Position numbers and translations under genes: made by a program. The notes below the pieces were generated by a model. The model was not told the DNA's origin. It saw only the letters and a program-made list of their open reading frames with translations, and did not search any database. A stretch of 60,618 nucleotides of DNA, filler included, from Hausera hauseri (taxonomy: Eukaryota), in assembly GCA_046269625.1 (NCBI GenBank). It is 11 parts of 11 records of this genome, joined end to end, with 100 filler letters (N's around TTAATTAATTAA, not from the genome) between each part and the next. Parts side by side here need not be neighbours in the genome. Positions count along the whole stretch, not along the records: positions 20,354 to 24,301 come from JBJURY010865741.1; 10 more parts are not named here. One strand, given 5' to 3'. Below are positions 4,410 through 48,059 of this stretch, one piece after another (position 1 is the stretch's first letter; every line of letters starts with the position of its first letter).

Positions 4410-5714
4410 CTATCGATTAGCACTTTGTCCCGATAGATTCGATGAATACTGCAGTGTGCAGCGATTGATTCTTAAAATGTGCAAAAAATGGGCAATTCTA
4501 AAATATCTGAAAATTTTCGGTATGGGATTAGTAACTTCTTTTCTAGAACCGCTTTTTTTATACTGGATTGCGATTAATTTGTTCCCTATGGATTCCCATT
4601 CGGTAATCTGTTTTTGGCGTATTCCTAGTTGCAACGAGGCGTATTTTTCTTCTACTATACCATCCAATACAATGGGAACAATTAAACCGTTTCTCATAAT
4701 CATCAGGAGTATTGCATTAACATGTATTTTATCTATTCTAAAATCCGGAAGTACTCGCAGTAATTCTTTCATTAAGCCGTTGCTTTTTATAGAATCAGTT
4801 TGAGTGGAAACAGTCATGGAATTAGCAACATTCCATTTTCGTTTTTTTGTTACTTTAGATGGTAGCTCTTCAAATATTGGTTCCATTACTTCAAACTCTT
4901 CTTCCTCATCTGATGTCTTGGGCTTTAATATTTTAGTTTTATTTGCTTTCGCTACTGTGACCTGCACGTCATATCGCCATTGCAATCCTGCAATATATTT
5001 GGTTTCACGATTTAAAATATCTCCAAAATCACTAATATTATTATGAAGATCTGGGGGTACCCACTCATACGTCTCGGTTAACTTTTTGTGAGCTTCCATT
5101 GTGAGCTGTAATCGTCCAATAGAGTTACTGGGAAATTTGGTTAACTTCAAAGATTGTATCATTTGGTTTAAGGTTTTGATTCTATTATCTATGGTAAATT
5201 CGGCACATTTGAGAGAATCAAAAATGGCACAAGTTCTATTTAATGGGATACATAGAGCATTAAAAGTTTTGTGGGCCTCTAATGCTATTATCTTGTATCC
5301 AAGTATATACTTCTCAATCTCCTTTTGCACCAAGTGAGAGTCCATTCCGTTCTCTATTTGTTCCCATGTTATAGTATGTCGAATACTATTTAAGTTATGA
5401 ATGTTCCTTCGAGGTGTAATACTTTGATTAAAGATAACTTCTCCAGATTTTTCCGCTATGATTATTTCGATTGGCAACTGAACCTGCAATCCATTTCATT
5501 TGTTTCCGTAGGCAAACGACACCACAAGGTATCTGGTACTACCGGATTTATGGGTGTATATTATGTTCGGTTCGTCTGACAATTCTCTATTTGTTGGTTC
5601 GACCGTATATTTCAATAGTGACAAGGACGGGAGTTGTCTTTCTTTTCTAAAAATTTCTATCATTCCGATATTTATTATCTCCTTAACGATGAATCGTGCA
5701 TGTTTGGGATCCAC
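4410..5714 (-). pseudogene. Retroelement accessory region with a DEDDh (REX4/ISG20-like) exonuclease fold lacking catalytic residues, copy A
   Basis: RYLVVSFAYGNK*...PIEIIIAEKSGEVIFNQSITPRRNIHNLNSIRHTITWEQIENG...VQKEIEKYILGYKII...FNAL...IFDSLK follows the REX4/ISG20 pattern; internal TGA at about 5496. Confidence 0.6.
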
Positions 5715-6124
5715 AAGATAATTAATTTAGCAGGATTTCTGGCCGGTAATCGTTTCTAGGCTATTCTTTCGTCCTTTTCTCCTCTAAATATCGCCATAAT
5801 TTTCCCAATAGCGACATGTATCGTTATTCCAATGTTATCTCCGGTCCACTGGGGAAATTTAAATGTAGTTTCTAAGTTAAATATTTTAAATAGGAGAATC
5901 TCCCGGTTTCGTTGTTTTCCATATTTCAGTACATTTTGGTATCTTTGTAACTTATTTCATTCTGTCCATTGAGTAATCTAAGTGTGCTATAATCTTGTCG
6001 TAAAAGGAATATGTCATATTCCTTTTGGCGGTACTGAGTCTTCTTATATATTTCTGTTCATCTTTCTTGTTTATCGGAATCTCATCTGGTAGTTTGAAAG
6101 TGTTTTTTCCTCCGAATTTCAGGG

Positions 6125-8070
6125 CTAAATTCGTCGATTGATTGATTCCGGATTCCGGAGCTTGATTACATAAATTTTTGACGTGGTTTTTAGTGCGTCT
6201 TGCTGAGGTTGCGTATCGCGTTTATACTCCTTTAAATCTAATATTATTGGCCGACTAATCAATTTTCTAAAATTCTTGATTATATTCTCATTGGTTATTA
6301 ATTTATGAATTGCATAAACTAATATGATTGGTCCAAGCAACATGCTAGATACGAGTATGTAGTTCATCATATGTTCTTTAAAATAACTACCAAAGTCCTT
6401 ATTAACTATCCTCAAAACCAAGATAGGTACAAGATAAAACGTGGTACGTGTTGCTTCACTTCTACTCTCTTCATTATTTGGTATTGGGCCTGAAATAGTG
6501 TGCTTTCCAATTTCATTTTGTTCGTAATTTCCACTTAACCATAGACACCGGTGATTTCTTCGGATAATAGAGAATTGAGACTCATTAGGCATTTTCTTTC
6601 TACATTTGGGTTTCTTGTCTAATGCGACTAACATCATAAGAATTACACCAATACTTGCTATTATGACGAAAATCCACCAATATTGTAAGATATACGTTTA
6701 GTAGTTCTAGTCGTAGTCGTGGTTACTTTCCATTTTTCATCGTCATCATTGTATCTTATGTGACGGTATTGGTCTATTGCTGGCTTTGTTTTTATGGCTA
6801 AAATTTTTGAGTTATCCGGAGTTTCTATCTTTACTAAATAGTTGGTATCTGGTGTTAGTTTTTCGCAGAATGTTTCGTTCATGTATTTTATTTTGAAATA
6901 TTATCTCAATTCGGTCCGTATAGGGCGTTAATTTAAAATTTATTGGGAATTCTTTCATACATTTTCCATAAAATACATGTCTATTTATTTTTGGTTTCAA
7001 CTTATATGACCGCTGATTTTGTAGGTTGAGCTTGACCTGATTGAACTGATCTTGTGATTTGAGCTTAAGCTGATTGAACTGATTGATCTGATTTCCTCTA
7101 CACTTAATAGTGGACGCCGTCCATAAGTCCGGTGTTATCATCTGTTTTACAGATTTAGGAGAAGTCATAGTCTGCTTGGCGAAAGTTGGGATAGGTGTTT
7201 TTTTACCGAGAAAAGAATTGGAATACGGTAAGAATAAACTCTAATTGAGCGTCTCATTATACGCTGGCGGATTTTGTACCAAATATATGGATATATGGTA
7301 CAACACGAACGAGTGTCGTTTCTCTTAAGATAACAATAATGTGGTTGTGCTATTGATGTAGAAACTGGATCAAACCATATGCTGATTTCGTATTCGCTGG
7401 GTAGTAGTTGCGTGGTGCGGAAATTCATACAAGGAATTTGTGCTGTTAGATTGATACCTGAAATTTCAATACCATGTTCAAGAAATTGAGCAATAAAAGG
7501 GTCAGGTTGGAATACATCGGAAGTTTCTAATATGGTCATCTCCTGATAACTAGGAACATGAAGGATCATATTTGGTTCCCAAATAATAGTATGCGTATCG
7601 TTAGCTTTCAATATCACATAATAGGTGTGAGTAATTATGTAAGTGACGGAACAGCATACGTTATTATGCATCTCAATGATTGTACAAACAGAGATATTGT
7701 GTTTTGATATAAAGACAAAATCGACCGCGTGGTGCATCATTATCCACATGTGAGTCCGAAGGCAAATACTGGGTTTATATTTGTCAATTCGGGCGATCGT
7801 AGCACGTTTAATTAATTCAGTGTTGGTCGCAGGTGTTTTATCGCGATTGGTATCCGCAATAGTTAATAAAAATGCCATAAAAATGAATAAAATGATGCCC
7901 AAGTGTTTATTCAAATTGAGGTGAACTGGGTAACGTTCTGAGGCACTTATATGGTGAGTTTTAAGCAAAGCTGCTATTTTAGGTTCCTCAGTTGGGGGTG
8001 ATTCTAATTCTGTCTCTCGTATAAATTCGTTGTATGATATCGGTGCTCGAGTGACACGTTGAACCGACAC
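6125..8070 (-). pseudogene. Retroelement-encoded membrane protein region (signal peptide, Cys repeats, FN3-like motif, TM helices), copy A, frameshifted
   Basis: Hydrophobic signal HLGIILFIFMAFLLTIA; two C..(F/R)T...C...CC repeats; CEKLTPDTNYLVKIET; a Thr-rich stalk; TM segments. Homologous to 21876-23780. Confidence 0.65.
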
Positions 8071-8100
8071 GATATAGTTCATAATTTTCGGTAGAAGATT

Positions 8101-8573
8101 CATTCGTGGAGAATGCACGAACCATCCAAAATCTACCAATTTCAGATTGTAATCATAATTGATGAGCAAATTTCCATGGTTTACGTCGCGATGTATAACG
8201 CCTTTTAAATGACAATACACGAGTGCTTCACATAGAGTAGCCGATATCTGACCGAACCACGCACACTTAGGGACCAGAAAAATTCGAATATCATCATCAA
8301 ACCAAGTATTTAATTATAAAATATTCTGATGGGATAATTTAGTCATAATATTTATCTCACAAAAACTGAAGTTAATAGAATTATTCTCATAGTATGATTT
8401 TTTGAACATAACCTTCACTGCACAGATGAATCCTTTTTTGATTGTCTCAGCCAAAAACCATGACCAAATTTCCCAGTACCCAACAAACTTCCAACATAAA
8501 AATTATCTAAACTGTAGCTTGAACGTAAATTCTCAGTAACTGACGGTTGAAAAATATCAATATCCAAATTCAT
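8101..8573 (-). pseudogene. Aurora-family kinase 5' fragment (N-lobe to DFG motif)
   Basis: MNLDIDIFQP..YSLDNFYVGSLLGTGKFGH, FICAVKVMFK, EINIMTKLSHQNIL*, LCEALVYCHLKGVIHRDVNHGNLL..LKLVDFGWFVHSP. DFGW.VH.P is Aurora-typical. The fragment has a frameshift, a stop and an internal deletion, and is truncated after the DFG motif. Confidence 0.85.
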
Positions 8574-8620
8574 CCGAATTATATAACAAGTAAATGGCGC
8601 TTTAAAAATTCAAATTCTAG

Positions 8621-8935
8621 TGGAGAATCGGATATAGATTTTTACTGTCAGTGGCTTTGAGTAAACTCCTGTTGTTACCCTTTGCCTTAACAATGGACAT
8701 GTTTTTGTTGAACGTTTACAATGGTTCTGTACTTGTGGACAAAATGAATAAGTACTGGTGGGAATTACGGTATAAATATCCAGGTCTCATACCACCAATT
8801 CCACGATCTGATGATGATTTCGACCCTGATGCCAAATATCACATTGCAATGGGTATTTCTTATATTCGGTACTTTGTCAGCTTCATTCTCCAGTTTCAAT
8901 TTTATGAAGCTATGTGCAATTTGAGTAATCATAAG
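8621..8935 (+). pseudogene. Angiotensin-converting enzyme-like (peptidase M2) internal exon fragment
   Basis: ESDIDFLLSVALSKL..LPF, WWELRYKYPGLIPPIPRSDDDFDPDAKYHI...SYIRYFVSFILQFQFYEAMC are hallmark ACE C-terminal motifs. An AG acceptor precedes it at 8619-8620. No HEXXH exon is present. Confidence 0.9.
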
Positions 8936-8989
8936 TATTGGTCAAAATATGATGATATTTTAATATGAATATTCGACTGTCTCGTTTTT

Positions 8990-9797
8990 TCCCTTAAATG
9001 ACATTATAATTATATCAACACATTTATCATCCAATTTCTTCACGGAATCGGATTCGGGCGACGTTTCCAAATATTTCTGTGCACGAATACTTTCCTCCTC
9101 GAGTTTCTGTTTAACATACATCATATATTTACAGACACCGTGAGTCATGAGGTATTGACAAGTTTCTTTTCGATAAAACTGTTCCGTATGTTCAAGATAT
9201 GCCTTTTCAAATTTCTCTTGATATATTGAAAGCTTCGATTCGGATTTTATCGACAAGTTTACATAAGACTCTCTAACTCCAATCACAAGCTGACTATCTA
9301 TAACGGCACCATTCCGCTCCTCGAGAATAAGTTTCATTGCGGTAGCTTGGAGTTTCTGATTTATTTGTTGGAAAATAGTATTGTTCCATTTATCTAACAT
9401 CATCTTTCGAACAATGCCAATATTTTTATTTCGTTTCTTTGAATTACTGATATTATTTTTACCGGCTAAATGATTATCCAACGAACCAAATGGTTTTGGC
9501 AAATATACACACTGAACAAAAAATTTCTGCCATTCATGAAAGAACGACCGCAACAACGCTGATTCACCTTGGTTTTGTTTTACTCTCTTTTCAGATTCCG
9601 AAATCGATTTAATAATTATTCCTAACGTTTCTTTCCTTTTACTGGCAGACTCTTCATGCCACATCGTCACTATATGAACATTAAAAATGTATCTTGCCAT
9701 TCTCTTTGACTAACATTTTTTGATTTAAAATATTACTTACTACAGCTCGAATTTCAGGCCATTTCTTATCAAAAGTATAATTTTCAACTGCATCCAT
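8990..9797 (-). pseudogene. CUL5: Cullin-5 N-terminal fragment (about 270 codons, one frameshift near 9685)
   Basis: MDAVENYTFDKKWPEIRAVV, EWQKFFVQC.YLPKPF, IVRKMMLDKWN, DSQLVIGVRESYVNL, FEKAYL..TEQFY and RAQKYLET are CUL5-specific. The fragment starts at ATG 9797 and ends long before the cullin homology domain. Confidence 0.9.
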
Positions 9798-10153
9798 TTT
9801 TAGCCTGCCCAGTAGTATCTCCAGCAACTGGTTAAACTGTAGATGCTGCTCAAATCCTCGAGTCGGAAGATCGGGGCCCGCCTATGGACCCGACGCGGCG
9901 ACAACGGACGCCCGGCCGTGCCCAACCAAATGGGCCAAAGGGCACCGGCCGCAGTGGTCACCACACACGCCTTCATACCTATTGGGTCCTTTTTGAATAA
10001 AAAGTGTTTGCGGACGCACATCAACAACTTTGTACGGTCCTTGACCAGTACGTNNNNNNNNNNNNNNNNNNNNNNNNNNNNNNNNNNNNNNNNNNNNTTA
10101 ATTAATTAANNNNNNNNNNNNNNNNNNNNNNNNNNNNNNNNNNNNNNNNNNNN

Positions 10154-11293
10154 CTTTCAGTATGCCTGCTATAATGTTCACACTGGGACCAGATAGTTGG
10201 CCATATTTGCGTGGTGCTTATATCAGACTAATACAGTCGATGTCTGTGAGTATTGACCGAGTGTCATTAATCATACTTAATTCTATATATATATCTAGTG
10301 GAAGGTTCGTTTGAGTCTGGCATCGTCGATTCATCACGTCTTTGAGATATTCAAATTTAACAAGAATGCCCTGGAAGATATTATTTGGGCGTATAAAGAA
10401 TTTGATAAAGACGTCGATGAAGTGAAAGTTGGCCTTATCTCTAACATATCCGATTTCTTTTTGTCATTGCCAATTTATAAGTATCCCGAAGTGTTCGAAG
10501 ATTTCAGTGACCTCGTTCATATCGAAAGCAATAAAAACTGGCGGTACCGTGTCACATGTATGGAACAACTGGAACTCGTCGTGGCGAATATCGATTTGCC
10601 AACCCAGTTGGATAAAACCGTCTTCATATCTGTTATGAAAAAGCATTGGTTGCCTGTCATCTTTGAATTCTCGGGAAATGAGGTGTTTTCCGTTCGAGTT
10701 GCTGCTCTCAGCACGGTATGTTCATTTCTGTTTGAATAGAAATGCACACGCGGTAGTATTTGGGTGATTACATTCTTCATCTTGATAAACTTTCTTCTAC
10801 ACTCTTCTTATATTCCTTCAAGTCTCTTATAAATCGCGTGTGTCATCGTCTATTAATGTGGTCATCATTTCACCCTTTCGTTCATTGCAGATGCTCAACA
10901 TTCTTAAGAAAATGGTGCTTTGGAAATCGGATATCGAAGCTCGACCGTATGAAACAGAATTCACTTGTATCATCGATCAAATTATCGAAAAGCTTCTCTT
11001 GTTTTCTGACTCCAGACGTTGGTATATGCGACAACTGTATTTGCAGAGTTGTATCAAGCTCATCACCATGATTATACTTCCAACGGAAAACATTTCCAAC
11101 TCCATGATGCCAAAGTACCTCCGTCTTTGTATTTCCGATAGCGTTCCAAATAATCGAATGATTGGTGGCCAAGGTCTCATGGTTATACTCGAACATGGTA
11201 ATAATGGTATTTTTATTGATACGTTGGTTATTTATTAGTTATATCTACTATTAATGATTTAGTGATTGTCCTGGGGGACACCTCGTCAACCTG
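10154..11293 (+). CDS. PPP4R1: Serine/threonine-protein phosphatase 4 regulatory subunit 1 (HEAT repeats), 3' part, multi-exon
   Basis: FSMPAIMFTLGPDSW, WKVRLSLASSIH, KDVDEVKVG, NWRYR..EQL, VFSVR, W..RQ and DSVPNNR. In-frame GT-AG introns at 10246-10298 and 10716-10890, and probably 11207-11262. The 5' end is cut by the contig edge. Confidence 0.8.
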
Positions 11294-11456: not shown

Positions 11457-12346
11457 CGTGCTCAGGCCCAAAAGTTTTTAAACTCTCATAGAAATAACAT
11501 AGCTAGAACAACCAAAGTTTATAGTTGATTAGAGCATTATATATAGCCAAAAATCTCTGGTTTGTTTAAATGAACTACTACCTGTTTCTTGTTTTTCGCG
11601 ATTTTTTGAAAATTATGTACGAAGAAGTGAAATTTCGAAGTGTCATACGATTTTTACTATTGCGGAAGTTGGAGAAAAAAGAAATAATTAAGCAGCTACG
11701 TGATGCTTATGGCGATGAAGCACCATGCCCGACGACTATTTATAACTGGATAAATGAATTCTCCTCTGGTCGCACAAGTGTTTTTGACAGACACAGAACT
11801 AAACGACCATTAGAAATTGGACAAGAAAAATTTGAAAAATTGAAGGCAATTGTGGTGAATAAGAGGAAAATTACATAAAAAGAACTCTGTACGACTGAAT
11901 GTTGGTAAGACAACTGTTCAGCGCACGTGATGTTGAGTATTTTGGAATTCCAAAGGAGTTTTGAATATTGATTTCACTAAAGGCATCATCAATTCTGATT
12001 ATTATATCAATTTAGTTAATGAAGTCAGGACGCTCCTGTTCACTCATTACACGAACGCAAGAAGCGATCGCGAAAGCTGGATTTGTGCAGTTGGAACACC
12101 CACCATACAGCCCCGATATAGCCCCTAGTGATTTCTGACTGCTCAATGACCTGAAGAAGCACTTGCGGGGTCAGAGGTTGGAATCAAAGGAGGAACTCAA
12201 AGTAAACGTGACGAAATATGCATGGTAGAGCGCTGGAGAAAGTTGAGAAATGAGACCTATATCGTTGTCATGTTTCAAATGTAAAATTCGGTTATTCTAG
12301 CTGTTTTATTTCTATGGGTGTCTAAGGACTTTTGGGCCTTACCACG
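11457..12346 (+). mobile_element. Internally deleted mariner (Tc1/mariner) DNA transposon with both TIRs
   Basis: About 57-bp imperfect TIRs (CGTGctcAGGCCCAAAAGT...CATAGAAATAA..AGCTAGAA.AACC) with TA on both flanks. HTH ORF 11570-11878 (FRSVIRFL...YGDEAP..TTIYNW..EF.SGR) and the HPPYSPDIAPSDF motif near 12095-12135. Confidence 0.92.
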
Positions 12347-12968: not shown

Positions 12969-14005
12969 CTAAATTTTCATGTTACGTTTTGATAATAAAT
13001 AACAAGCAACCTGGTTCCACCACAGATACATAATCAATTTCATACTATCGGCAAGTAATGATTGACCAGCACGACTGTCAATAACGTGTTTCTTGAAGGC
13101 AGCCAATAACAATGCCGCAACCCGCTGATGAAGTGATAGAGGGAGATAGAGATAACATTCATCAACACTGGTGAATCCCCAATTCAAATTGGTAAGGATG
13201 TGTCTGGCTAATTGATTACAAATTGCTGATGGAGGATTGTCCATCAACCAAGATGAAATCATTCGGAATTCCATCTCATTGGGAACAAAGAGACAGAAAG
13301 GAAGCTCACGGAATAGAAAGAGACCCATTTGACCAACAGACGGATGCCATAATTTGATGGAGTCGAGAATAACAGATAAGATGAGCGGATGTTGCAGACA
13401 AATGGATGACAGTAATTCACGACCCACTTTGGAGAATGTTGAACGAGTGGAAGGAATAACGTAGCAGATCTGGAACAGCAGGCCGGTAATGGTCGTCTGT
13501 AGTCGGTATTCGGTACGAATTTGTGATCGGCATTCGGTGGCCAAATTACACAATGCAGTTAGTAGATAGATGGCTTCACTCTGGCAGATTTGGTCAAGCG
13601 TGTCTTGCAGACCTGTCAAATACCATTCTTGTTCATGTGGCACTGATGAGGACATTCGGTGATCGATTAGCAACGATAGGAATTGTTCTTTACGTCGAGG
13701 GGATAACATGCGCCATGGTAAGTCTGGTAGACACTGCCAATTGCCGTGATACCGATTGGACAACAAAGAAATCAATCCTCGTTCATAGATGGACTCGTAT
13801 TGTGCCAGCATTAGCATACGGTCGTAATCCGTGAATTTATGTACATGTTCTGGTTGAATTGATGTGCCGAGTACGGCTTCAAGATGGTCGGTGAGAAATT
13901 GCAATGTGTGTCTGAATGGATACACGATAAGAAAGGTAGAATTGATTTTGAAACTACAGTAGAATCATCCATAGACACGCGATGGGTATCAAACTCCATC
14001 ATCAT
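12969..14005 (-). CDS. EPG5: Ectopic P-granules autophagy protein 5 (EPG5), internal exon or fragment
   Basis: STRSTFSKVGRELL...HP.I.SVILD, VG.M.LFLFRELP..LF.P, I.SWL and NQLA..IL..LNWGF match EPG5. A possible donor follows WWNQ at about 13011. A frame change near 13925 and no recognisable flanking exons mean it could be a relic. Confidence 0.78.
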
Positions 14006-14562: not shown

Positions 14563-14662
14563 NNNNNNNNNNNNNNNNNNNNNNNNNNNNNNNNNNNNNN
14601 NNNNNNTTAATTAATTAANNNNNNNNNNNNNNNNNNNNNNNNNNNNNNNNNNNNNNNNNNNN

Positions 14663-17350
14663 GTGATGTTAACTGATCTCGACAAAAAATCAGCAACTAG
14701 ATTGTCAGTGCCTGAAATATGTACCATTCTGAAATTGAATGTCGAGAAGTATAATATGTGACGTTCCTGTCGGAGTGAAAGTACTGTCATGTCCATAATG
14801 CAAAGCAGAGGTTTGTGATCTGTTTGGATTGTAGAAGACCTGGCAATTAACAAATGCGAGAAGTGTTTTAGGGCTAATACTGTGGCTAAGAATTCACTGT
14901 CGAAAGTTGAATAACAACTTTTTGGTTGTGTAAGTTTCCGAGAATAAAATGTCAGAGGCTCGTTGATGCCATTAGAAATTTACTGCAGTATTGAACCGAC
15001 TGCTGTGATAGAGGCGTCTCTGATTAATATCAGCTCTACGTCAGGCTTGGAGTATACTAGAATCTTAACGGTTTTTAAACCCTCACGTAAGTGGTCGAAG
15101 AGGTTTACAAGTTCAGGCGTCCAGTGAATTAACTGTTTCTATTTTCCAGGCGATAGAAATGCAAAAGGGGCAATTAATTCGGAGCAATGTGGTACGTATT
15201 TATGAACAAAGTGGAGTGTACCAAGAAAAGAGCGTATTGCAGTTGTTGTACGTGGCAGTTGAGTGTATTAAACTAAATTATGCGATTTTGTTGAGGAGGG
15301 TGGCCAGATTTGCTGATAACATGACCAAGAAAGTTGATTCTGTGTTGAAAAAAAGAGCATTTTGCCAAGTTGACATCGAGGTTACTCTGATGGGGCCTCT
15401 GAAAGACTATGTGTAAATGCTCAGAATGCTGTTTGGGAGAGGACGAAGCGATAAGGATATCACCTATGCATGGGTGCACAAAGTTTAGACCGGAGGGCAT
15501 TGTGTCTGTGTGCCTTTTAAATGTTTGTGAGGCACTACGAATTCCGAATGGCGTGAAAACATACTCGAAAATGCCTAAAGGTATTGTTACAGCCGTTTTT
15601 GGTATGTCAGCCGGTGCCACGGGAATTTGATGGTAGGCTTTATGGAGATCGATTAATGAAAATATGATGTTGCCATGGGGTCGATATGAAATGTCGTTAA
15701 CGAGCGGTAATAGATATGTATTTATTACCGTAATGGTGTTTAATTGTTGATAATCCCAACATGGCCTCAGTGCGCTATCCTTCTTGGACACAACGTGTAA
15801 TGGTGAGTCCCAAGGGGATTTTGACCTTCTTATGATTCCTGTTTTTTGTAATTCGTTAAATCCAACTTTACCGCTTTGCGTCTGCGAGGAGAAAGTGGCC
15901 TAACCTTCTGTTTAATTTGTCTTTGGTGTTCAGTGACAATGTAATGGTATGTTGTAGAAGCAGGTTTAAAATTGGGATCTTTCTTTAATGTTCTGGCACA
16001 ATAACTTGTTATGTAATCGCTAAAAGCTGAATCTAGTTGCAAGAATTTGGATACAGACTGAGAGATCACGTTTGTATTAGCAGTTGTTTTTTAGTGATTG
16101 TATGAATAGAATCGTCACAGTCAGCATTGCCAATACTCAATTCATTTACTTTGGTTACAGATTTCTTTGATATCGATTTTGGCATCGCAGCCAGATGCGC
16201 GACAAGTGTTGTACCATTTTGTGATTTTGTATTATCGATTGTATTTTTGATGACACGATGCTGTCTGCAGTCGACAAGTAAATTGTGATATGATAGAAAA
16301 TTACAACCTAATATAGGAGTTTTGATATAATCGACTATGAATTTCAAGTGGAAGAGAAATGTGCTAAGGTAAAAGAAATTCTGCAGTACCAGAAATGTGT
16401 AAAGTTTGCCCAGCGGCAGTGAAAAGTTTGGCAGACGTTGGAAGTATTTTTAAGGGTTGAAGAATGAAGAAAGTAATGAGACAGCTATACCCGAGTCAAT
16501 CCAAAATTTGATGTGGTGCGTGAAAGGTGTGAGTGCAGCGTCCAAAAGAAAAACAGAGTTGGTACGGCGATTAAGTTATGAAAAATGGCCTTTTCCAGAC
16601 GCCGCCATAGTTTCTGGCGGTTTTATTTGTTTTTTCGAATAAATGAGGATGTTGGAGTTTTCTAGGTGTAAAATTTACACCCAGGTAAGCAGGGTTCTGC
16701 ATTGTCTTTAAACTTATTTTAATAGATGCAGACCGCATCCTGTGATTGAAAACGCTACATATAGAACTTGCAGCCTATACAGCATTTTTTGGCATTTCGA
16801 TTGAATTTGGTGTGATAATAGCACACCATTCGTCGCGACGGTGACTGGCCGTGCCTAGAGTTTTCAGACGACTGTCTAATTCGATTCGCACTAAATTGAT
16901 CACGACGCGGTAGAGAAAAAGAGTCAATTTTGCTAGAGATGGCCGATATGGCTTGATGTAGGGCCACATTTTAGGCTTACAGATTTTGAATTTGAAGAAA
17001 TATACTGTTTTCGTTGTTTGATGAGTTTGCTGATTGTAGATGTGCAACTATTATTGGTGATTGCGTTGCTTGTAGAGCTGAATTCGTTTTATATGCATTA
17101 TTGTTATAAAAAATTTTGTAATTTTTGTCTTCAAGTTGTGCCAGTTTGTCGAGCAACGTAGAATACTTAACTACAGTGAGGAGTGCGCGTATTTGGTTGG
17201 TTTATTCACAAAAAATTTAACTGTGATTGTAGGGTTCCAGCGATAGGTACTGTAAAGCCATTGTGAGTGATGCAAAAGTCAGATGCACGAAGCATAGTGG
17301 AGATGACGTTGTAAAAATCTATATTGTTTGCGTGTGTTGGTGCAATTGTG
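14663..17350 (-). mobile_element. Degenerate Ty3/Gypsy LTR retrotransposon (gag, protease, RT, RNase H)
   Basis: Gag CYYHTKF..NAKKC..GCKF (two copies); protease FWIDSG..VSLL; RT SPWDSPLH.V.KKD..LRPC.DY..LN, FSLIDL.KAYHQIP, PKTAVT.P.G.FEY..PFG, C(I)GDILIAS; RNase H TDHKPL and N.VADFLSR. Many stops and frameshifts. Confidence 0.92.
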
Positions 17351-17809: not shown

Positions 17810-18500
17810 TCATAGGCGACACTTGTTTTTCAATATCCAGTGTCGTTTGTCGTCGAATGGATCTAGTGCTTTCTTTTTTGTACTGATCGTCATCAGTTGA
17901 TGGTTCTTTGTCCCAATCCGTTCTTGATCGACAATTGTCCCACATCCATTCTTATACTCTTCCAAGTAATTGTCAAAGTGTAAATCCGTTTGTTTCAAAT
18001 TGATGCCCTTGCATTTCAACACCGGTTTGCTTTTGGTTTTGAGGGCATACGATTTCGGTCTTAGGAAAATGGCTTCTTCGTATTCAACACTACCCTTACT
18101 TTCATCCTTGAATTTACCAATTACCGAAGCGAAACGAGTAGAATAAAGAGGGTCTGTAGCATCATAGTTAAAAGTGTCCAACTGCTCGTTTGCTATCCTT
18201 TCCGGTAAAAGTTGATAGTATCGCTTCAACCATTTATTGAGAAGTTTTAGGAACAAATTAACCTGCGGTATACACTTCAAGATAGCCTCCTATCTGTGGC
18301 TGAAGGTCACGTGAAGTTCCAATGGGAAAGACAAACAGACAGATTTGATATTCCCCTTCCTGAATACTCATCCATTCGCTTTAACGGAACGGTATGGCAT
18401 AACGTGGGTTCTAACGTGCAAATCTCTGTAATACCAACAACTATTATGATAGAAACTGAACAAAATATCCCGTCGCCATAGACTATTAGTTCCGGTCTAC
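17810..18500 (-). pseudogene. Polinton/adintovirus-type protein-primed DNA polymerase B, C-terminal fragment
   Basis: LDT.NY...DPLYS....VIGKFKDE..G....E.IFLRPKSYA, KCKGI, I..KNHQL.T....KKAL.PFDDKR. Homologous to the C-terminus of 36359-39902. Confidence 0.85.
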
Positions 18501-20353: not shown

Positions 20354-22085
20354 CAATTAATGAGTGCAGTAAGGCTTTCATTAACGAGTTACTGTTCATT
20401 TGATCTGTTTGAGTTGAATTGTTTTTTGTTTCTTTCTTTTCGCTCGGTTGCGTTTCTATTTCACTTTCCTCATTAAACAATGGTTCGAGGATCTCGCAAT
20501 CCATGATCTCAAATTCTTCTTCATTGTTAATCATCATAGGTTTTACCAGTTCGACTTCATGCCCTTTTTGTATAGTGGCTTGAACATCATATTTCCATTG
20601 TAAGTCTCCCAAATATTTTGGTTCTCTGTTCAAAATGTCTCCAAAGTCAACAATATTGTTATGAAGTTCAGGTGGTATCCATTCATACGTCTCAGTGAGT
20701 CTTTTATGAGCGTCTATAGTAAGCTGCAACCTTCCTTCAGTGGTGCTCGGAAATCTGTCCAGCTTAAGGATTATTATCATTTGACTTATCGTCTTTATTC
20801 TTTTATCCATAGTGTTTTCGGTGCATTTAAGTGAATCGAAGATAGAGCACGTTCGATTCAGTGGGATCTTCAATGCTCCAAATGTTTTATACGCTTCCAA
20901 TATTATTATTTTGAAACCGAGTATGTACTTTTCGATTCCTTTCTGTGCTTCATGAGAATCCATACCGTTCTCTATCTGTTCCCAGGTGAGCATATGTCTG
21001 GTACTATTCAGATTGTGTATATTTCTGCGTGGAGCAATGACGCTGTTTAAGAGTATTCCTCCTTTCTTGTCCGCTATCATTATTTCTACAGGCAAAGGGA
21101 CTTGCATTCCATTAGATTTGTTACCGTAGGCAAAGGAGACGGCTAAGTATCTCGTACTCTGAGCTTTACTTGTGTACATAATGTTTGGCTCCCCTATTAG
21201 TTCCTCATCTGTTGGCTCTATTTTGTACTTCAACGGGAGTAAATTCGGAAATTGCTTTTCTCGTCTAATAATTTCTATCATGCCCATATTTATGAACTCT
21301 TTGGCAATTATTCTTGTATTCTGAGGATCTACTGGGAAATTGATTTGACAAGATTCCTGTCCATTTATGGTTTCCAAATTATTCCTGCGTCCTTTTAGAC
21401 CTCTGAATACTAACATAATCTTTCCGATTTCCAAATGTACTGTAATTCCGACGTTGTCTCTTGTCCAGATTGGGAATCTGAGCGTGGTTTCGGAATTGAA
21501 TATTTTGAATGGAAGGAATTCTGTGTTCCTTTGCTCGCCATATTTTAAATTATTGGGTATCTTGGTAACATCATTAATTCGATCCACTGGGGAATCTAAA
21601 TGTGCCAATATTTTGTCGTAGAAAGAATAGCTCATGTTGTTTTCTGCTGTGCTGAGTCTAAGTATTGGTTTTTGCTCATTTAATCGCTGAATCGGAATAT
21701 TTTCGGGTATCTTAAATTCTTTGTTTTCATTGCACTTTGGTGGTTGACGATTTCTGATTGAATCCTGGTTTCCGAGTTCCGGAGCTTGATTAGTTGACCT
21801 GCCTGACATAGACTTATTTTCATCATTCTGCTGTTGCACCAATGTTTTATAATTTTCTTGGCTGCATATAATTGGTCAACAAATGAAATTTCTTAATGAG
21901 TTAAATATCCCTTTCTGATTGGTTCTAGATTTATAGAAAGCATAACACATCATGATTGATCCTGTGAGAGTAAGGATTGTTACTACTAATGTAAAGTCTA
22001 ATTGTATTGGATGACTTGGGGCCATGTTTTTGATAATCAACAATGTTAGTATTGGCGTAAAGCAAAACACTCTGTGTATTGTCAT
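20354..22085 (-). pseudogene. Accessory ORF: TM anchors, possible HSP20-like domain and an inactive DEDDh exonuclease-like domain
   Basis: ORF 21876-22085 is in frame with 20354-21842 across one TGA, which aligns to Arg in copy A (FIC*PII versus LISRPII). The exonuclease-like pattern lies at 20688-21152. Confidence 0.6.
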
Positions 22086-23621
22086 TTGGATCAGTTAATA
22101 TGGGCTCGTTAACTACTGCACCTCTTATCTCACTTATCTCCATTCTATCATTTAAAGCGAAGAGTGGCTCTTGAACGGTATATGCTCCATTATTATTTCG
22201 GATTACCGAATAATGAGATCCGTATAGTTTCTTCTTTTTACATTTGACTTTATGCCCAAATGCGACGAATAAACTGACGATGATACCCAATAGTAATAAG
22301 ATGAGAAATACCCACCAATACTGGGTAAAATATATTTCCGTGATTATTGGCGCAGGTGTAGTTTTCTGCCAATTCTCGTCCTTCTCATTGTAATGTATAT
22401 TTCTGTATCTATCCGCTGCAGGTAGTGTCCTTATGGCCAGAAGTTTTGAATTGTCATTAGTTCTGATGTTCACTAAATAATTCGTGTCTGGGGTCAATTT
22501 TTCACAAAAATTTCGTTTGTTCGTATTGTAATTAAAACTGGTTTTCTCATGAGTACCTGTACATGATTTACATATGGTGTTAACCTGACCTTTATTGGAA
22601 ACTCTTTTATGAGTTTTCCATAAAACACATGTTTGTTTATCCTCGATTTCTGTACTATTATTTTCTCTTGTTTCGGTAAATTCAGCGTCAGTTCCCTTTC
22701 CGGTTTGTTTTGATTTTCTGCTCTTGATTTTTGTGGACTCTTTGTTGTTGACTGGTGTCGATTCTCTAAACTCTTTGTTGTTGACTTGTGTTGACTCTCT
22801 AATTTTCCCCTACCCTTAAAAGTAATGGTCCGAGTAGTTGATGAATGCGTAACTGTCGTACTTTTAGTTTTAATAGTTGTGCGTGGAGGCGCGTGTAATC
22901 TCAATGGCGTCTGTGTGAGAAAAATATAGAATGGTAGTTGGGACGAATGTATGCGATTAGAAGGTTGCATACCATGTCTGAGATACATATCGAAACGAAT
23001 AATATATCGAATATCATTCCAAATAGTACAACAGACTCGTGGATGACCTCCATTCAGGTGACATAGATGCATTTGAGGCACGACGTGAGGAAAAGAGTCG
23101 AACCATATCTGAATTTCATATCCGAGAGGCAGACGTTGTAAGGTTTGAAAATTGATGCAGGAACGAGTTCGATGCACATTGATCATTACAAGATTATTCT
23201 TCAAGAATTGAGTAGTAAACTCATCTTGTAGTGGTGCAGGAGAATTACCGAGAAAGTCCATGACATAATACACTGGAACATGAATATTGAAATGAGGGTC
23301 CCATTTGGAGATGTATTCCTCATGTCTCGTCTTTTTAAGCAATATATAGTAAGTATATGATGTATCATATTCGAGTTGACAGCATGTCTGATTATATTTT
23401 TCAAAGATTGAGCAAGTGGTTATTTCCTTATCCGATGAGGTGAAGATAATTTTAATTTCGTGTTGTGGAGGAACTGGTGAATGTGTTTGTAAGCAAATAC
23501 TAGGTTTATCAACGTCGACGTGAGTAATGGTCGTGTGTTGAATCAAGTCGACATAGTCGTTTGCGGCTATTACCGTTTTCACAGAAAACATTATGAGGAT
23601 TAATAGAACTATTCCAATATA
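21931..23621 (-). pseudogene. Env-position type I membrane protein: signal peptide, two Cys-rich repeats, Ser/Thr stalk, FN3-like domain, TM
   Basis: Signal YIGIVLLILIMFSVKTVIAA; repeats PSICLQT..C..CC..Y and SCINFQT..C..CC..Y; TTIKTKSTTVTHSSTT; CEK-LTPDTNYLVNIRT; TM YWWVFLILLLLGIIVSLFVAF followed by basic HKVKCKKKK. Frameshift near 22497. Confidence 0.65.
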
Positions 23622-23779
23622 TTTACCTGGAGTGAGGTGAATGCGATAAATAGTAGAGTTATGTTTATCCCATTTTTGTTGCAGGGATAAGGCAGCGGCT
23701 TTGTTATCTACCATTATTGGTGATTCTAGCTCTGATTGTCTTATGAATTCAGTATATAAAGAGGGTGCTCTCGTAACTC

Positions 23780-24301
23780 GTTGTACGGATACAGCCTCAT
23801 ATTTATCTGCAGCCTTTCGAATGAAAAGAGTCTGGGGACGAATATCAACCACTTCATATGGTCCTTGACCAGTTCGCGTTAACTTCAGTGATTTGCCTTT
23901 TTTGCAACGGGATAATGAACCATTACACAATCGCCAATTTTGTAGGCATGTGGACGTGCTTTCTTGTTAAAATGTTTCTTATAACCAGCTTTATACTTCT
24001 CTTCAAATTCTTTAGCTTCATGTTGAAAATGTTCTAGTCTTTTAAGTAGGTCTTGAAACTGTTTGTCCATGTGATCACTAATTTTCAAAGATGACGGTAA
24101 TAATTCAGTGTCTAATGGTAACAGTGGCAAGCGTCCAAACATTAGTTCAAAAGGTGAATGGTTAGTACCTTTCGTAGGTGTAGTATTAACAGCAAAAGCG
24201 GTAGTCTTGAGATGAAGATGCCAATCCTTTTGATCGTGTGCAACCTTTGTTGAAAGAATGCCCTGTATTGTTCTATTCATTCGCTCAACCATACCGTTAC
24301 A
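23780..24301 (-). CDS. Gypsy integrase C-terminal half with GPY/F module (frameshift near 23900)
   Basis: rve core end NG.VER.NRT, SPFEL.FGR and KL...QGPYEVV. Confidence 0.9.
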
Positions 24302-28137: not shown

Positions 28138-29628
28138 CACTAGAACTGCGGATGCAGTCAAAGTGACGCTTTTCTATATTTGTTAAAAATTATTTTATTG
28201 CTGGAGGGTGATCGAGTGGTGAGACTTACCGACTTTTAGTGGAATTACGAGAAATAAATGCCTATGAAAAGGGTCAACATAAACACACTGTAACAGCGAT
28301 ACAGATGGTTCATACTAAAACCGCGAAAAGCAGTCAAAATGACTGCATACATATACAACTTCAAAATATGAACATATTTCCAGCAAAATTAGTTATTATT
28401 TGCAGTTGTGCAACAGATAAATAAAATTATGCGGATCTATCTGTAACAATTCATACAAGTAATTGACGCGTTTCTCTTTCCAATACATGACCCACAGCAA
28501 AATATTATACATCCGCTGCAGACTGCTGACGTTGTTTTGTGTTCAAATATTTGACATCCTCTCCTCTTTACGGGTAGTTGTGAAACATCTGGAAGTTGTT
28601 CTCCCTGTGCGTTTTGACCTACTGACGAAGAGGATGCATAATTATTACAAAATTCTTCGCCTAGTTGTAGCAGGAAGTCACTCTCTGATTTGTAGCCTGA
28701 CCGCAAAAAATCCATGAGTTCGAAATAGCGAAATCCATCAAATTGTAGAAGACCTCAAGTGGCCACCTTCTACTTCCAGCTTTTGTTGTATATAATCTAG
28801 TCACTTGGTCACAGACATCCACTCCGGTATTGGTTCTGTTACAATAAGCGATAGTTTCCTGCAACTGTTTCGGGGAATTCTGAATACTGCGTGTTCTATA
28901 GAAAGTATACATTCCGATTTTTTTGGTTTGGACTTGTAAACTGTGGAAAGAGCACCACGATCTTTTTCAGTATATATTTCAGTATCATGTCTGTGAAGTC
29001 GTTTCTCAATTAGATCCATAGAAAAAGGAAGCTCGAGTCTATTTCTCCTTATGGGCCCAACAAAAGTGGTTTTGGCTTGCAATAATTCTTTAGTGCCAGA
29101 GAAGTGAAGAAATTATCCGCCTTAATATTATAACCCTTACCTTTATATTCCTTTATTAGCTCTATGCAGACGTGATGTCCAAGTTAAGCGGATGGCCCCT
29201 CTCTTCTTTACCAACATAAGGAATTGCACTCACCATGTATTTGGAAGAAACTTCGCACAACAACCAGAATTTCATACCATACTTGTCCGGTTTGTTGTAC
29301 ATATATTGAATAAACGGACATCGTATTTTACGTGGTAGTAATTGTTCATCTATCGTCAATTCACATTCAGGGATATAAGCGGATTGGCAATTCGAGATAA
29401 ACCTGTTCGATGGCCATGATATTAGGGCAAATTTATCGTGAACAATTCTTTCTTTCGAGTACACTTATCATCCAACCTCAAAAACTTCATTATCTTCCGA
29501 AATTTATTACGAGGCATTGTGCTGCTGAAGATAGGTAAACTCCACTTTTTATTCCACATTGATTCTAACTCTAATTTGGACGCACATGTGGAATTGGAAG
29601 GAATATTCAATAAATAAATACAATTCAA
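28138..29628 (-). mobile_element. Degenerate piggyBac transposon (3' end with TTAA and terminal repeat; 5' end lost)
   Basis: TTAA at 28134-28137 then CACTAGAACTGCGG, with a subterminal copy near 28313. Transposase motifs MPRNKF..I.KFLR.DD, TIDEQL...RCPFIQY...KPDKYG.KFW, DNFFTS, GVD..DQ...Y......RRWP..VFY...D and a C-terminal Cys-rich domain. Confidence 0.92.
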
Positions 29629-30749: not shown

Positions 30750-33700
30750 CGTCATTATTCCTGATTACTGTCCTCGGTTATGTGATGACTGGTCTCGTGA
30801 TATATGAATAAATCATAATTTCTCGGAGGACAGATCTTATGTATGTGTGTAATGCACTACATCCTGGGATGACAAGTCTCAAAATTCAGAAAAACATACG
30901 AGATCCTCAGATGAGTGATATCACGACTCCCGAGTTATGACTCCATTCTGGAATTAACATATTTCATGACTCCTGAGTATTGCTTGATTTCCTCGGATGA
31001 CAAACCTCATGAAATCTTAATAAAGCTTGATATTCTGTTATGAGAGATCTTACGGTGCCCGATTCACGAACGACATGATAGGAATAATTCACAACATCCT
31101 GGAATAACAATTATCATTTTTCTTGATTAATATTTGTCTTTCTGCGACGACAGATTAACCAGTAATAATCGGTAAATGTTATTAAACAGTAATAATGATA
31201 AATGATATTCCAGATTATCAGTAATGCCATATATCGTTATTCCTGATTAATGCTCAAATTTCTGGGATGACAGATTCCGTTATACAGGAATAAGTCATAA
31301 GGATCTGTGATGATTTCTGAGCAAATTCCAGATTCTCAGGAATGATGATGTCGTAATATCTGAAAAATGCATTACGTTCTGGAAACAGACATGATAACGT
31401 TCAGGAATAACATTTATCATGATTCCTGATTAAATCAGTGAGAATGACCGATCTGTTATATTTCAATATTGAAACCTTATACTTATGCATAAAAATATGC
31501 AAAAACATATGTCATTACTCCTGATTACTGTCCTTGGTTATGTGATGACAGGTCTCGTTTTATCTGAATAAATCATAATTTCTGGGATCACAGAATTTAT
31601 GGTACGTTTGTAATGCACTACATCAAGTCTCACGATTCAGGAAAATATACGAGATCTTCAGATGAGTGATATCACGATTCCCGAGTTATGACTCCATTCT
31701 GGAATTAACATATGTCATGAATCCCGAGTAATGCTCGACATTCTTGGATGAGACATCACTTTGTTTCAGAATACATATCCATGTGGAAAAATATATATAA
31801 TGATTACTGTTAAGTTCTCTAGGTTCTGGCATGACAGATTTCATGATAACTTAATAAAGCATGACATTCTGGGATGACAGATTTCGCGGTGTCCGATTAT
31901 TCCTGATTAATGCTCAACTTTCTGGGATGACAGATCTCGTTATATCGTAAAGTTCTGGGATGATTTCCAAGTAATGCCAGATTCTCTGGAATGATGATGT
32001 CGTAATATCTGCAAAATGCATGACGTTTTGGAAGCTGAAATGCCATAAATCAGGAATAAAATGTCTCATCACTCCTGATTAAATCAGTGAGAATGACCGA
32101 TCTGATGATATTTCAATATTGAAATTTTATACGTATGCATAAAATTATGCAATAACATGTGTCGTAATTCATGATTACTGTCCTCGGTTATGTGATGACT
32201 GGTCTCATTATATCTGAATAAATCATAATTTATGGGAGGACAAATCTTATGATACGTGTGTAATGCACTACATCCTGGAACGACAGTTCTCGAGATTCAG
32301 GAAAATGTATGAGATTCTGAGATAAGTGATATCACGATTCCTGAATTATGAACTCCATTCTGGAATTAACATGTCTCACGATTCCTGAGTAATGCTCGAC
32401 ATTCTGGGATGAGATATCACTTTGTACCATCACTTTGTTTCAGAATACATTTCCATGTGGAAAAATATATATAATGATTACTGTTAAGTTCTCTAAGTTC
32501 TGGCATGACAGATTTTATGATAACTTAATAAAACATGACATTTTGGGAAAAGAGATTTTACGGTGACCGATTTAACGCACGACTTGGTCGGAATAATTCA
32601 CACAATTTTGTTATATATGAAAATTCACAACATCCTGGAATAACAATTATCATTTTTCTTGATTAATATTTATCTTTCTGCGACGAAAGATTAACCAGTA
32701 ATAATGGTAAACGATATTCCAGAATATCAGTGATATCATACATCGTTATTCCTGATTAATGCTCAAATTTCTGGGATGACAGATCCCGTTATATAGGAAT
32801 AAGTCATACCGTTCTGGGATGATTTCTGAGTAATGCCAGATTCTCTGGAATGATGATATCGTAATATCTGCAAAATGCATGACGTTTTGGAAGTAGAAAT
32901 GCCAAAATTCAGGAATAAAATGTCTCATGATTCCTTATTAAATCAGTGAGAATGACCGATCTGATAATATTTCAATATTGAAACCTTGTACATATGCATA
33001 ATATTATGCAATAACATATGTCGTAATTCGTGATTACTGTCCTCTGTTATGTGATGACTGGGTCTCATTATATCTGAATAAATCATAATTTCTGGCTGGA
33101 CAGATCTTATGTATGTGTGTAATGCACTACATCCTGGGATGACAAGTCTCAAAATTCAGTAAAACATACAAGATCCTCAGATGAGTGATATCGCGATTCC
33201 CGAGTTATGACTCCATTCTGGAATTAACATATCACATGACTCCTGAGTAATGCTTGATTTTCTCGTATGACAAACCTCATGATATCTTACTACAGCTTGA
33301 CATTCTGTTATGAGAGATCTTACGGTGCCCGATTCACGAACGACATGATAAGAATAAATCACAACATCCTAGAAAAACAATTATCATTTTTCTTGATTAA
33401 GATTTGTCTTTCTGCGACGACAGATAAAACCAGTAATAATGATAAATGATATTCCAGAATATCAGTAATACCATATATCGTTATTCCTGATTAATGCTCA
33501 AATTTCTGGGATGACAGATCTCGTTATATAGGAATAAGTCATAACGTTCTTGTATGATTTTTCAATAATGCCATATTCTCTGGAATGATGATGTCGTAAT
33601 ATCTTAAAAATTCATTACGATCTGGAAACAGAAATGCTAAAATTCAGGAATAACATGTTTCATGACTCCTGATTAAATCAGTGAGAATGACCGATATGAT

Positions 33701-34630
33701 AATATTTCAATATTGAAATTTTATACGTATGCATAAAATTATGCAATAACATGTGTCATTATTCCTGATTACTGTCCTTGGTTATGTGATGACAGGTCTC
33801 TTGTTATCTGAATAAATCATAATTCATGGGAGGGCAGAACTAATGGTATGTTTGTAATGAACTACATCAAATCTCAAGATTCAGGAAAATATACGAGATC
33901 ATCAGATGAGTGATATCACGATTCCCGAATTATGACTCCATTCTGGAATTAACATATCTCATGAATCATGAGTAATGCTCGACATTCTTGGATGAGACAT
34001 CACTTTGTATCAGAATACATTTCCATGTGGAAAAATATATATAATGATTACTGTTAAGTTCTCTAGGTTCTGGCATGACAGATTTCATGATAACCTAATA
34101 AAGCATGACATTCTGAGATAAGAGATTTTGCGGTGCGTTAGCACGACTTGATCGGAATAATTCACAACATTTTGTTAAATATTAAAATTCACAACATCCT
34201 GGAATAGCAATTGTCATTTTTCTTGATTAATATGTGTCTTTCTGCGACGACAGATAAAACTCTATCATTTACCAGTAATAATGGTAAATGATATTCCAGA
34301 ATATCTGTAATTTCATATATCGTTATTCCTGATTAATGCTCAAATTTCTGGGATGACAGATCCCGTTATATAGTAATAAGTCATTACCGTTCTTCGATGA
34401 TTTCGGAGTAATGACCGATCTGATAATATTTCAATATTGAAACCTTATACTCATGCATACAATAAATAAATCATAATTTCTGGCAGGACAGATCTTATGT
34501 ATGTGTGTAATGCACTACATCCTGGGATGACAAGTCTCAAAATTCAGAAAAACATACGATTTCCTCAGATGAGTGATATCACGATTCCCGAGTTATGACT
34601 CCATTCTAGAATTAACATATCTCATGACTT
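30750..34630. repeat. Complex satellite: about 21/42-bp subrepeats, 650-860-bp monomers and an about 2.25-kb higher-order unit
   Basis: The marker ATGAGTGATATCACGA(C/T)TCCCGAGTTATGACTCCATTCTGGAATTAACAT recurs at about 30911, 31662, 32322, 33181, 33908 and 34569. The core CTGGGATGACAGATCTC recurs every 41-44 bp. Confidence 0.9.
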
Positions 34631-34814
34631 ATCGCCCACACAAAAGCGTGCTGTTACAAATAAAAAAAAAAACGCTTCTTCGGCTTCATCTGTAAACTTA
34701 GGAAAACAAGTGAGAAGGTTAGTGAAAAGTTATTAGTGCTAAGAATTTATGCTTAATGTTTATATATTCATCAAGGTTAGTGATCTGAACATGTTAAGAT
34801 TAACAATATGTCAA

Positions 34815-39300: not shown

Positions 39301-39902
39301 GATAGGTACCATTGTTTCCCGTCACCTTCAACATTTTCAAATTCTGCAAGTGAGTAATATTGCACTTTGCAGTGTTGATGTTGGAATTTCTCTACTTCCA
39401 ATTCCAACCGGTTGCGCACATTGGACAGAACATGCCTCAGCTGTAGTGTTGTTGTCCCCGACATGTTTACTTTTATGTCCACGTACGATTTGTTTAGATC
39501 GTACTTGACAGTAACGAAAGGTTCCTGCTGTTGCTGTTGCTGCTCGGTACTGTTTCAGATGTATTCTTTAAGACTTGTGGATGCTTGACGTTTTCTGCTT
39601 GTTGAGGGGATACTGGTTTTTCTTGTCGCCATCACTATTTCCTTTTTGGATCGCTGAAATTGGTTCAGGTGACCATTGAGCTGGTTGTAAAATTGTTCAT
39701 AGTTGATTTCATCAACTATAGAACAACCGGGACAAATGTAGGTCCGTTTACCGTGCACCGTTATGGCGCCATAGTACTGCTCCATTACACTATGGCAACC
39801 ATCGTCGTCATGCACTCTACTACAACAGTATCGCGGGTATGTGGAGCAATACACAACCATCATCTTTGCACGCGTAAGCGGGTCAAGATGATGCTTGTGC
39901 AT
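36359..39902 (-). pseudogene. Near full-length but decayed Polinton/adintovirus-type pPolB, with N-terminal extension and an endonuclease VII-like Zn module
   Basis: In order: DEYCFIYSILA, IPTFERRNP.LAI.VF, HYVAITNL.RLL, V.DHNHFTGRYLG.AC..CNL, F.NFRGYD, RFLDSLQFL..SL.KL, YLKLDV.LLADVF..FR, IRGG, DINNLY..ALSQ.LPYG.F, YKLKNNSLYGKTVEN, P.YI...VLDLSKL.MY, IG.FKNE and ALS..DKR. Many frameshifts. Confidence 0.92.
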
Positions 39903-47969: not shown

Positions 47970-48059
47970 GAGGCAGAGATTAATACGAACAATATATTTA
48001 TGTTATGAATAAATGAATTAATATATTGGCTTACCTGAATTTAATCGTTTTTATTTTGG

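Follow-up and report, generated by a model that had tools for sequence, protein, structure and literature searches.

A Ty3/Gypsy retroelement in a Hausera hauseri assembly carries a probable REX4/ISG20-like exonuclease domain without its catalytic residues

What use could a retrotransposon have for a nuclease domain that appears unable to cut? The DEDD-type accessory domains reported in retrotransposons in PMC5408684 look active, and that paper left their role open. The window analyzed here (the whole stretch of 60,618 nucleotides from assembly GCA_046269625.1, consisting of 11 contigs with N-flanked spacers between them) contains a domain for which an earlier note had claimed a REX4/ISG20-like DEDDh fold, a destroyed active site, and retention by selection within a retroelement.

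The domain is indeed carried by a retroelement. The contig at 20354–24301 (copy B) starts, on the minus strand, with the C-terminal half of a Ty3/Gypsy integrase (match to Ty3-G Gag-Pol, E = 3.5e-8), followed by a stretch that we take to be the GPY motif and that is 61% identical to the corresponding part of a second copy; the element is of the Ty3/Gypsy type. A GPY motif is described in PMC5408684. The second copy of the same retroelement (copy A) occupies the contig at 4257–10053 and is ~65% identical to copy B at the DNA level across 3231 aligned bases. Both contigs terminate inside the element, which places gag, protease, reverse transcriptase, RNase H, and the two LTRs outside reach. The order of the parts is integrase, signal, ectodomain, hydrophobic segments, and pseudo-nuclease domain, and the features are as follows.

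Copy B, 23763–24301, minus strand: C-terminal half of integrase and GPY motif (Ty3-G match; frame break near 23890)
Copy B, 22899–23642, minus strand: signal-like hydrophobic segment and Cys-containing predicted ectodomain, in frame with the integrase end
Copy B, 22357–22898, minus strand: Thr/Ser/Lys-rich stalk and small conserved domain (frame break near 22555)
Copy B, 22255–22311, minus strand: first predicted transmembrane helix, then a basic cluster (hydropathy 3.0 in B, 2.9 in A)
Copy B, 21933–22067, minus strand: second (short, weak) and third predicted membrane segments, in the same frame as the pseudo-DEDDh domain
Copy B, 21876–21878, minus strand: in-frame stop dividing the domain frame from the hydrophobic segments (aligned copy A codon is sense)
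Copy B, 20355–21875, minus strand: 507-codon open frame with the domain, running into the contig end
Copy B, 21153–21716, minus strand: conserved region upstream of the domain (62–65% identical to A, pN/pS 0.25–0.30)
Copy B, 20688–21152, minus strand: predicted pseudo-DEDDh (REX4/ISG20-like) domain (motifs, Atlas features, PDB profile)
Copy B, 20354–20687, minus strand: conserved stretch after the domain and acidic linker, as far as the contig end (alignment with copy A)
Copy A, 9965–10052, minus strand: integrase end (GPY), with a 1.9-kb insert between it and the other parts
Copy A, 5535–8071, minus strand: ectodomain, membrane segments, and upstream region (several frameshifts and stops)
Copy A, 5070–5534, minus strand: predicted pseudo-DEDDh domain (in-frame stop at 5498–5496)
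Copy A, 4410–5495, minus strand: remainder of the frame, including a C-terminal part absent from copy B's contig (no Pfam match)

In copy B, one open frame (23966 to 22497) spans the GPY stretch, the signal-like segment, and the ectodomain, and the same continuity from integrase to ectodomain is seen in copy A except for the insert. The ectodomain region is 39% identical between the copies across 293 codons and contains eight Cys in each, and the ectodomain (~220 residues) has no Pfam match in either copy. The stretch at 22509–22357 is 71% identical to copy A. The small conserved domain, which we take by eye to be fibronectin-III-like, has no Pfam match, and neither has the stalk. A loop lies between the first helix with its basic cluster and the other two membrane segments, whose hydropathy peaks are 1.6 and 1.7 in copy B and 1.2 and 2.0 in copy A. 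The stop at 21876–21878 is the only one in its frame between 22097 and 20355. The conserved region upstream of the domain also lacks a Pfam match; a MAFFT alignment suggested that it is homologous to the N-termini of two distant relatives of the domain (P0002 and P0003, below), and this candidate was rejected when a profile comparison with those N-terminal parts was negative. Downstream of the domain, copy B is 64% identical to copy A across the first 50 codons.

The insert in copy A (8072–9964, ~1.9 kb) lies at the integrase end and has a 5-base direct repeat on its flanks. It is a patchwork of host gene fragments, with an unbroken 230-residue piece of cullin-5 (about half of whose positions match mammalian cullin-5 by eye), a piece of angiotensin-converting enzyme on the other strand, and a piece of a protein kinase. 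The low match of the cullin-5 piece to its mammalian counterpart makes an invertebrate animal the likely host.

Six public sequencing runs (six organism codes) contain part of the copy B stretch, and five of them were compared. The numbers of contigs placed on the 3.9 kb of copy B were 660 for run X1, 98 for X2, 18 for X3, and 5 for X4. The 660 contigs of X1 fall into four identity bands (65, 105, 243, and 247 contigs), a spread that fits a multi-copy family. Around 21477–21514 in run X4, an unrelated contig of 3163 bases has a depth of 32, compared with 3–5 for the contigs of the element, a weak hint that the element belongs to some minor organism, for example a parasite, that was co-sequenced.

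Does the domain have the claimed fold? All of the quoted motif strings are present in the translation of 21152–20688 (minus strand), in the open frame, and a REX4/ISG20 exonuclease fold (RNase T/DnaQ-like) is very likely, the signal being remote. Clusters of the RNase_T set account for 28 of the 30 ESM Atlas feature matches of copy B, and the top score is 0.94 (185 of 256 features in common), a scale on which shuffled proteins reach 0.9 in 4–10 of 100 cases. An exhaustive search of 1.84 billion representatives returned three matches, including P0002 (E = 3.2e-5) and P0003 (E = 2.3e-4), which align to 111–116 residues of the domain; the third, P0001, an unrelated bacterial repeat protein with 26 matched residues, was dropped. 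Homology between copy B and P0003 over the domain was also indicated by a profile match (91%). Residues 191–373 of the Atlas model of P0003, whose whole-model pLDDT is only 0.43, aligned in each of 10 rows with a REX4 or RNase_T cluster, at TM scores of 0.71–0.76 (0.75 for REX4). When a four-row profile (copies A and B together with the distant relatives P0002 and P0003) was compared with the PDB at E ≤ 10, all three rows returned were DEDD-family exonucleases: ISG20L2 (E = 0.0016), SDN1 (E = 0.24), and the PolC exonuclease (E = 0.85). Neither copy B alone nor a profile of A and B had a PDB match, P0003 alone gave four rows and the P0002 plus P0003 profile one, and all five of these were unrelated proteins. 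Because neither pair alone matches a DEDD enzyme, the fold signal lies in features common to the four rows.

Profile and structure searches had been proposed as the means of deciding the fold, and their answer was divided: the PDB profile found DEDD enzymes, whereas Pfam and Foldseek (the latter with a poor model) found none. RNase_T (PF00929) matched none of the four rows at E ≤ 10, and there was no RNase_T match in the copy B frame or domain. AlphaFold models from two and four rows were poor (mean pLDDT 35 and 46); the better one had no Foldseek match at E ≤ 0.001, and in a wide structural search it retrieved helical bundles only (best Z 6.8) and no DEDD structure. Word-indexed protein searches, with longer proteins outside their scope, yielded none of 357 candidates and none of 79, and only P0002 and P0003 of 3854. 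No loci related to the domain were found in viral contigs or JGI metagenome contigs, which leaves P0002 and P0003 without a genomic context; they may or may not come from retroelements.

The replacements of the catalytic residues were described correctly in the earlier note, which had read the ExoI DxE as S-F-A and the ExoII Asp as Thr, had found the ExoIII His and Asp absent, and had reported the same substitutions in copy A. In copy B, on the minus strand, the five positions are:

21137–21135: Ser at the ExoI Asp position
21131–21129: Ala at the ExoI Glu position
20885–20883: Thr at the ExoII Asp position
20747–20745: Ser at the ExoIII His position
20732–20730: Arg at the ExoIII Asp position

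HMMER alignments place D144 and E146 of SDN1 opposite the Ser and Ala, and D267, H322, and D327 of ISG20L2 opposite the Thr, Ser, and Arg (ISG20L2 numbering from the available text of PMC10899777). All five residues of copy A, including the Ser and Arg of ExoIII, are identical to those of copy B, and four of the five codons differ silently between the copies. ISG20L2 needs D183, E185, D267, H322, and D327 and loses its activity when any one of them is mutated, according to the same available text (PMC10899777). Nor do the two distant relatives keep an intact set. The first three catalytic positions are Glu, Ala or Val, and Phe in P0002 and P0003, with Phe at the ExoII Asp position in both of these proteins where copies A and B have Thr; P0003 may retain the last Asp in a by-eye register that is absent from the MAFFT alignment, and P0002 stops before that position. 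Four public runs cover the domain (30, 30, 25, and 27 of 30 bins), and 40 of their 49 differences from copy B are listed; two of these 40 touch catalytic codons (at 20745 and 21135), both are silent, and none restores a catalytic residue. The domain therefore fails the defining residues of the active DEDDh family and is not a member of it, and judging from its sequence it very probably lacks metal-dependent exonuclease activity.

Loss extends beyond catalysis. R226 of ISG20L2, which lies at the last nucleotide, and H262 bind RNA (available text of PMC10899777), and they align to Asn and Leu in both copies. The former 3′-end pocket thus appears degraded as well, and the suggestion that the domain could bind RNA ends is weakened because the residues that grip the RNA 3′ end are also gone.

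We then compared the two copies for signs of selection. The domain aligns without gaps between copy A (5534–5070) and copy B and is 72% identical over 155 codons, even though copy A contains an in-frame stop (5498–5496) 13 codons into the domain that the earlier note did not mention. The proposed comparison of substitution rates gave pN 0.17 and pS 0.85 (saturated), for a pN/pS of 0.20 (bootstrap 0.14–0.28), which indicates purifying selection; dS cannot be corrected when synonymous sites are saturated, so this ratio errs on the upper side as an estimate of dN/dS. In the same frame, flanking blocks have pN/pS values of 0.25–0.31, and ectodomain blocks have 0.52 and 0.60, making the pseudo-DEDDh domain the best conserved among the non-overlapping blocks compared. 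Among the differences between the runs and copy B, 31 were classed, and nine of the 40 listed were left out (found in a minority of contigs or one run). Half of the affected codons (15 of 30) are silent, though non-silent sites outnumber silent ones by ~3.6 to 1. For 8 of the 15 non-silent cases the runs side with copy A, which means that copy B has itself drifted slightly since its insertion. Identical replacements in copies with saturated synonymous sites, together with the pN/pS of 0.20, indicate at the sequence level that the catalytic loss is old and that the disarmed domain has been kept by selection, as had been claimed against copy-specific decay. Conserved as a domain and stripped of its catalytic residues, it has the marks of a pseudo-exonuclease.

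These results bear on three other accounts of the domain. If the losses reflected the decay of an active nuclease after the copies died, they would have no biological meaning; both copies are broken elsewhere, and copy B has changes of its own, but the same five replacements would not be expected twice in copies so diverged, the distant relatives also lack an intact set, and none of the listed run variants restores one. This account is largely refuted. It is very improbable, too, that the likeness to DEDDh nucleases is due to chance and the protein has another fold. The missing Pfam and single-sequence PDB matches, the unmatched model of the domain itself, and the scores reached by shuffled proteins all speak for chance, but the features of copy B, the structure predicted for P0003, and the PDB profile matches agree on one family, and copy B and P0003 are homologous over the domain. 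Only slightly less remote is the idea that the domain remains a nuclease with a rearranged active site. The model for this is Maelstrom, a protein that keeps the fold but not the DEDD motif and for which endoribonuclease activity with an ECHC site is described (available text of PMC7968707). The residues common to all four rows include one His, one Cys, one Glu, and two Asp, the first catalytic position is Glu in P0002 and P0003, and the possible last Asp of P0003 would fit as well. Against it, all four DEDD positions lack an acidic residue in copies A and B, and the single His and single Cys common to the four rows do not make up an ECHC-like zinc-binding tetrad. Furthermore, the Maelstrom mutants themselves point to RNA binding rather than catalysis, as far as the available text goes (PMC7968707).

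Where in the element's protein does the domain sit? The breaks in copies A and B mostly do not coincide, and we think it likely that the domain is no ORF of its own but ends one long frame that starts with integrase and continues through the signal, the ectodomain, and the three membrane segments. That the membrane segments and the domain share an unbroken frame in the intact element is somewhat more probable than not. A single stop (21878) separates the membrane segments from the domain in copy B, and copy A is open there; copy B changes frame near 22069, where copy A is open; and copy A shifts near 6180, where copy B is open. Contigs of runs X2 and X3 differ in length from copy B at the 22069 break. 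The local alignment of the two copies over the junction between membrane segments and domain scores 92, compared with a maximum of 47 in 200 shuffles. Several observations count against a fusion: no length change at 22069 is listed for the deep X1 contigs, the junction region is weakly constrained (pN/pS 0.63–0.75), and both copies break within ~40 bases of each other (B at 22555, A at 6880–6900). One X1 contig differs near 22555, and a programmed shift or splice there is possible. P0002 and P0003 match copy B over the domain only. They begin at a common methionine and have no strong hydrophobic segment, so in their lineage the domain protein may be a separate ORF. By the positive-inside rule the tail would lie in the cytosol, and we place it there provisionally; the topology could be reversed, because the second membrane segment is weak.

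We tentatively favor, at a little short of even odds, a role in which the domain binds nucleic acid without cutting it and, placed on the membrane protein's cytosolic tail, holds the element's RNA or particle at the membrane. A REX4-like domain was likely taken once from a host gene and then disarmed; we propose that disarming followed because an active 3′-5′ nuclease beside the element's own RNA would harm the element. The dead domain would then have been kept as a binding module on the tail, where it could hold the element's own RNA (the presumed target) or its particle at the membrane. By analogy, the domain likely works like a DEDD pseudo-exonuclease. That nucleic acid is bound by a basic surface and not by the old 3′-end pocket seems to us an even bet. 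Basic residues (K+R) outnumber acidic ones (D+E) by 22 to 15 in copy B and by 19 to 14 in copy A, and five basic columns are conserved in all four rows; what counts against such binding is that the positive charge is modest on balance (+3 in P0003). Cer1, which we take to be a Gypsy-class element, offers a parallel. Its CERV is an element-encoded accessory protein that handles the element's own RNA (available text of PMC10309623). Both PXL and Exuperantia bind RNA with a dead DEDD fold, in the case of PXL by way of a basic surface, according to the part of PMC13659232 available. A wider reading is speculative and on balance doubtful: a pol-fused polyprotein could end in an unclassified surface protein that uses a disarmed REX4-like nuclease as its cytosolic tail to grip the element's RNA or capsid at the membrane, and could thereby give an animal Gypsy lineage a budding or cell-to-cell route without a known viral fusion protein.

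Two further roles would also require a dead domain, and we regard each as unlikely. The domain could be a counter-defense decoy that shields the element's RNA from host 3′-5′ nucleases or small-RNA trimming, or that binds the partners of a host REX4/ISG20/SDN-like enzyme. ISG20L2 and SDN1 are its closest solved relatives, and host DEDDh proteins restrict retroelements even without nuclease activity, according to the available text of PMC10123124; the arenavirus NP exonuclease, an immune antagonist in the available text of PMC7968707, is among the Atlas rows at 0.87. On the other side, the 3′-end pocket residues are lost and no host partner is known. Counter-defense proteins often evolve fast, whereas this domain is the best conserved block compared. 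Nothing in the evidence favors a decoy over a role internal to the element. Alternatively, the domain could be a protein scaffold that makes no contact with nucleic acid, either a matrix-like link from the membrane-protein tail to the Gag shell or an oligomerization unit. The loss of both the catalytic and the substrate-gripping residues would suit a scaffold, as would the invariance of core Gly, Pro, Ile, and Asp positions in all four rows and the only mildly basic net charge. However, several basic residues are invariant across rows that are ~30% identical, and both of the dead DEDD folds covered in the available text of PMC13659232 bind RNA.

How does the domain compare with known systems? 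It is likely to share its fold and order of elements with REX4, ISG20, ISG20L2, and SDN1, which include its best PDB matches. It differs from them in that all five catalytic residues and the RNA-gripping Arg and His are replaced, it falls below Pfam detection, and it is encoded by a retrotransposon. The nearest precedent among mobile elements is that of the bdelloid Juno and Vesta LTR retrotransposons and Terminons, which have a DEDDy ORF3 downstream of pol (PMC5408684); capture of a DEDD domain by bdelloid LTR elements is also a cited case in the available text of PMC6338049. Like the domain described here, ORF3 is a DnaQ-like exonuclease domain downstream of pol in a Gypsy-like LTR element. 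It differs in being RNase D-like (DEDDy), with its invariant residues intact (DEED), in a separate ORF without membrane segments (PMC5408684), whereas the present domain resembles REX4 (DEDDh), is dead, and is likely part of a membrane protein. PML PXL, Exuperantia, and Maelstrom also have the DEDD fold without the catalytic acids (available text of PMC13659232 and PMC7968707). They are host proteins of other branches (either TREX/Plex-like or bearing an ECHC zinc site) in the same available texts, in contrast to a domain borne by a mobile element, in which we saw no SAM-like or ECHC part.

The rest of the polyprotein has partial parallels. The giant Gypsy elements of the Burro group in planarians likewise have a polyprotein extended in frame by host-like domains and an env-like region, but their env lies between gag and pol and is viral-fusion-like, whereas the membrane protein here follows the integrase and belongs to no known family; the available text lists nothing exonuclease-like among the domains of Burro (PMC6431247). 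Errantiviruses with an F- or gB-type env are also Ty3/Gypsy elements with a surface membrane protein after pol (a predicted one in our case), according to the available text of PMC13524379, but the ectodomain here has no Pfam match and is likely in frame with integrase. The words exonuclease and DEDD do not occur in the available main text of that paper. The literature searched, including the available texts of PMC3985635, PMC10123124, and PMC13524379, contained no account of an LTR element with a dead DEDDh domain, in a search that had most subscription papers, Repbase and other repeat databases, and supplements outside its scope. DEDD domains in LTR elements are already known, and the dead DEDDh form is new among them.

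A fold that is kept under strong selection after losing catalysis implies that cutting is not the sole reason to carry a DEDD domain. If the fusion to the membrane protein holds, it would point to a link between the RNA of a Gypsy element and membranes of a kind not described before. The domain also exemplifies a class of accessory domains that escapes Pfam and searches with single sequences, and it is a small, open, directly expressible test object.

Other contigs of the window resemble what we take to be vertebrate retroelements, and the assembly may therefore be mixed. Two frames without a Pfam match, at 10299–11238 and 12969–13964, look like host genes and resemble a PP2A scaffold subunit and EPG5. 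A second two-copy family (44467–46273, minus strand, and 56576–58441, plus strand) has broken ORFs with 50–70% protein identity, membrane segments predicted by eye, and no significant Pfam family. A retrovirus-like element at 51489–56134 (plus strand), with a GC content higher than the rest of the window, encodes gag, protease, reverse transcriptase, and two RNase H-type domains with in-frame stops between them; it shares its contig with a LINE-1 ORF1-like frame (minus strand, weak Transposase_22 match) and a Gypsy gag (plus strand) at 47112–49334. Fragments of protein-primed type B DNA polymerase and an endonuclease VII-like piece (17810–18289 and 36451–39554) are, we assume, typical of Polinton/Maverick-like elements. 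DDE_Tnp_1_7 transposase fragments, a mariner-type HTH, and two small Gypsy elements were found at 28437–29464, 11570–11878, 14611–16830, and 39972–41267, and the stretch at 30750–34750 is a complex higher-order tandem repeat with nested units of 50–300 bases.
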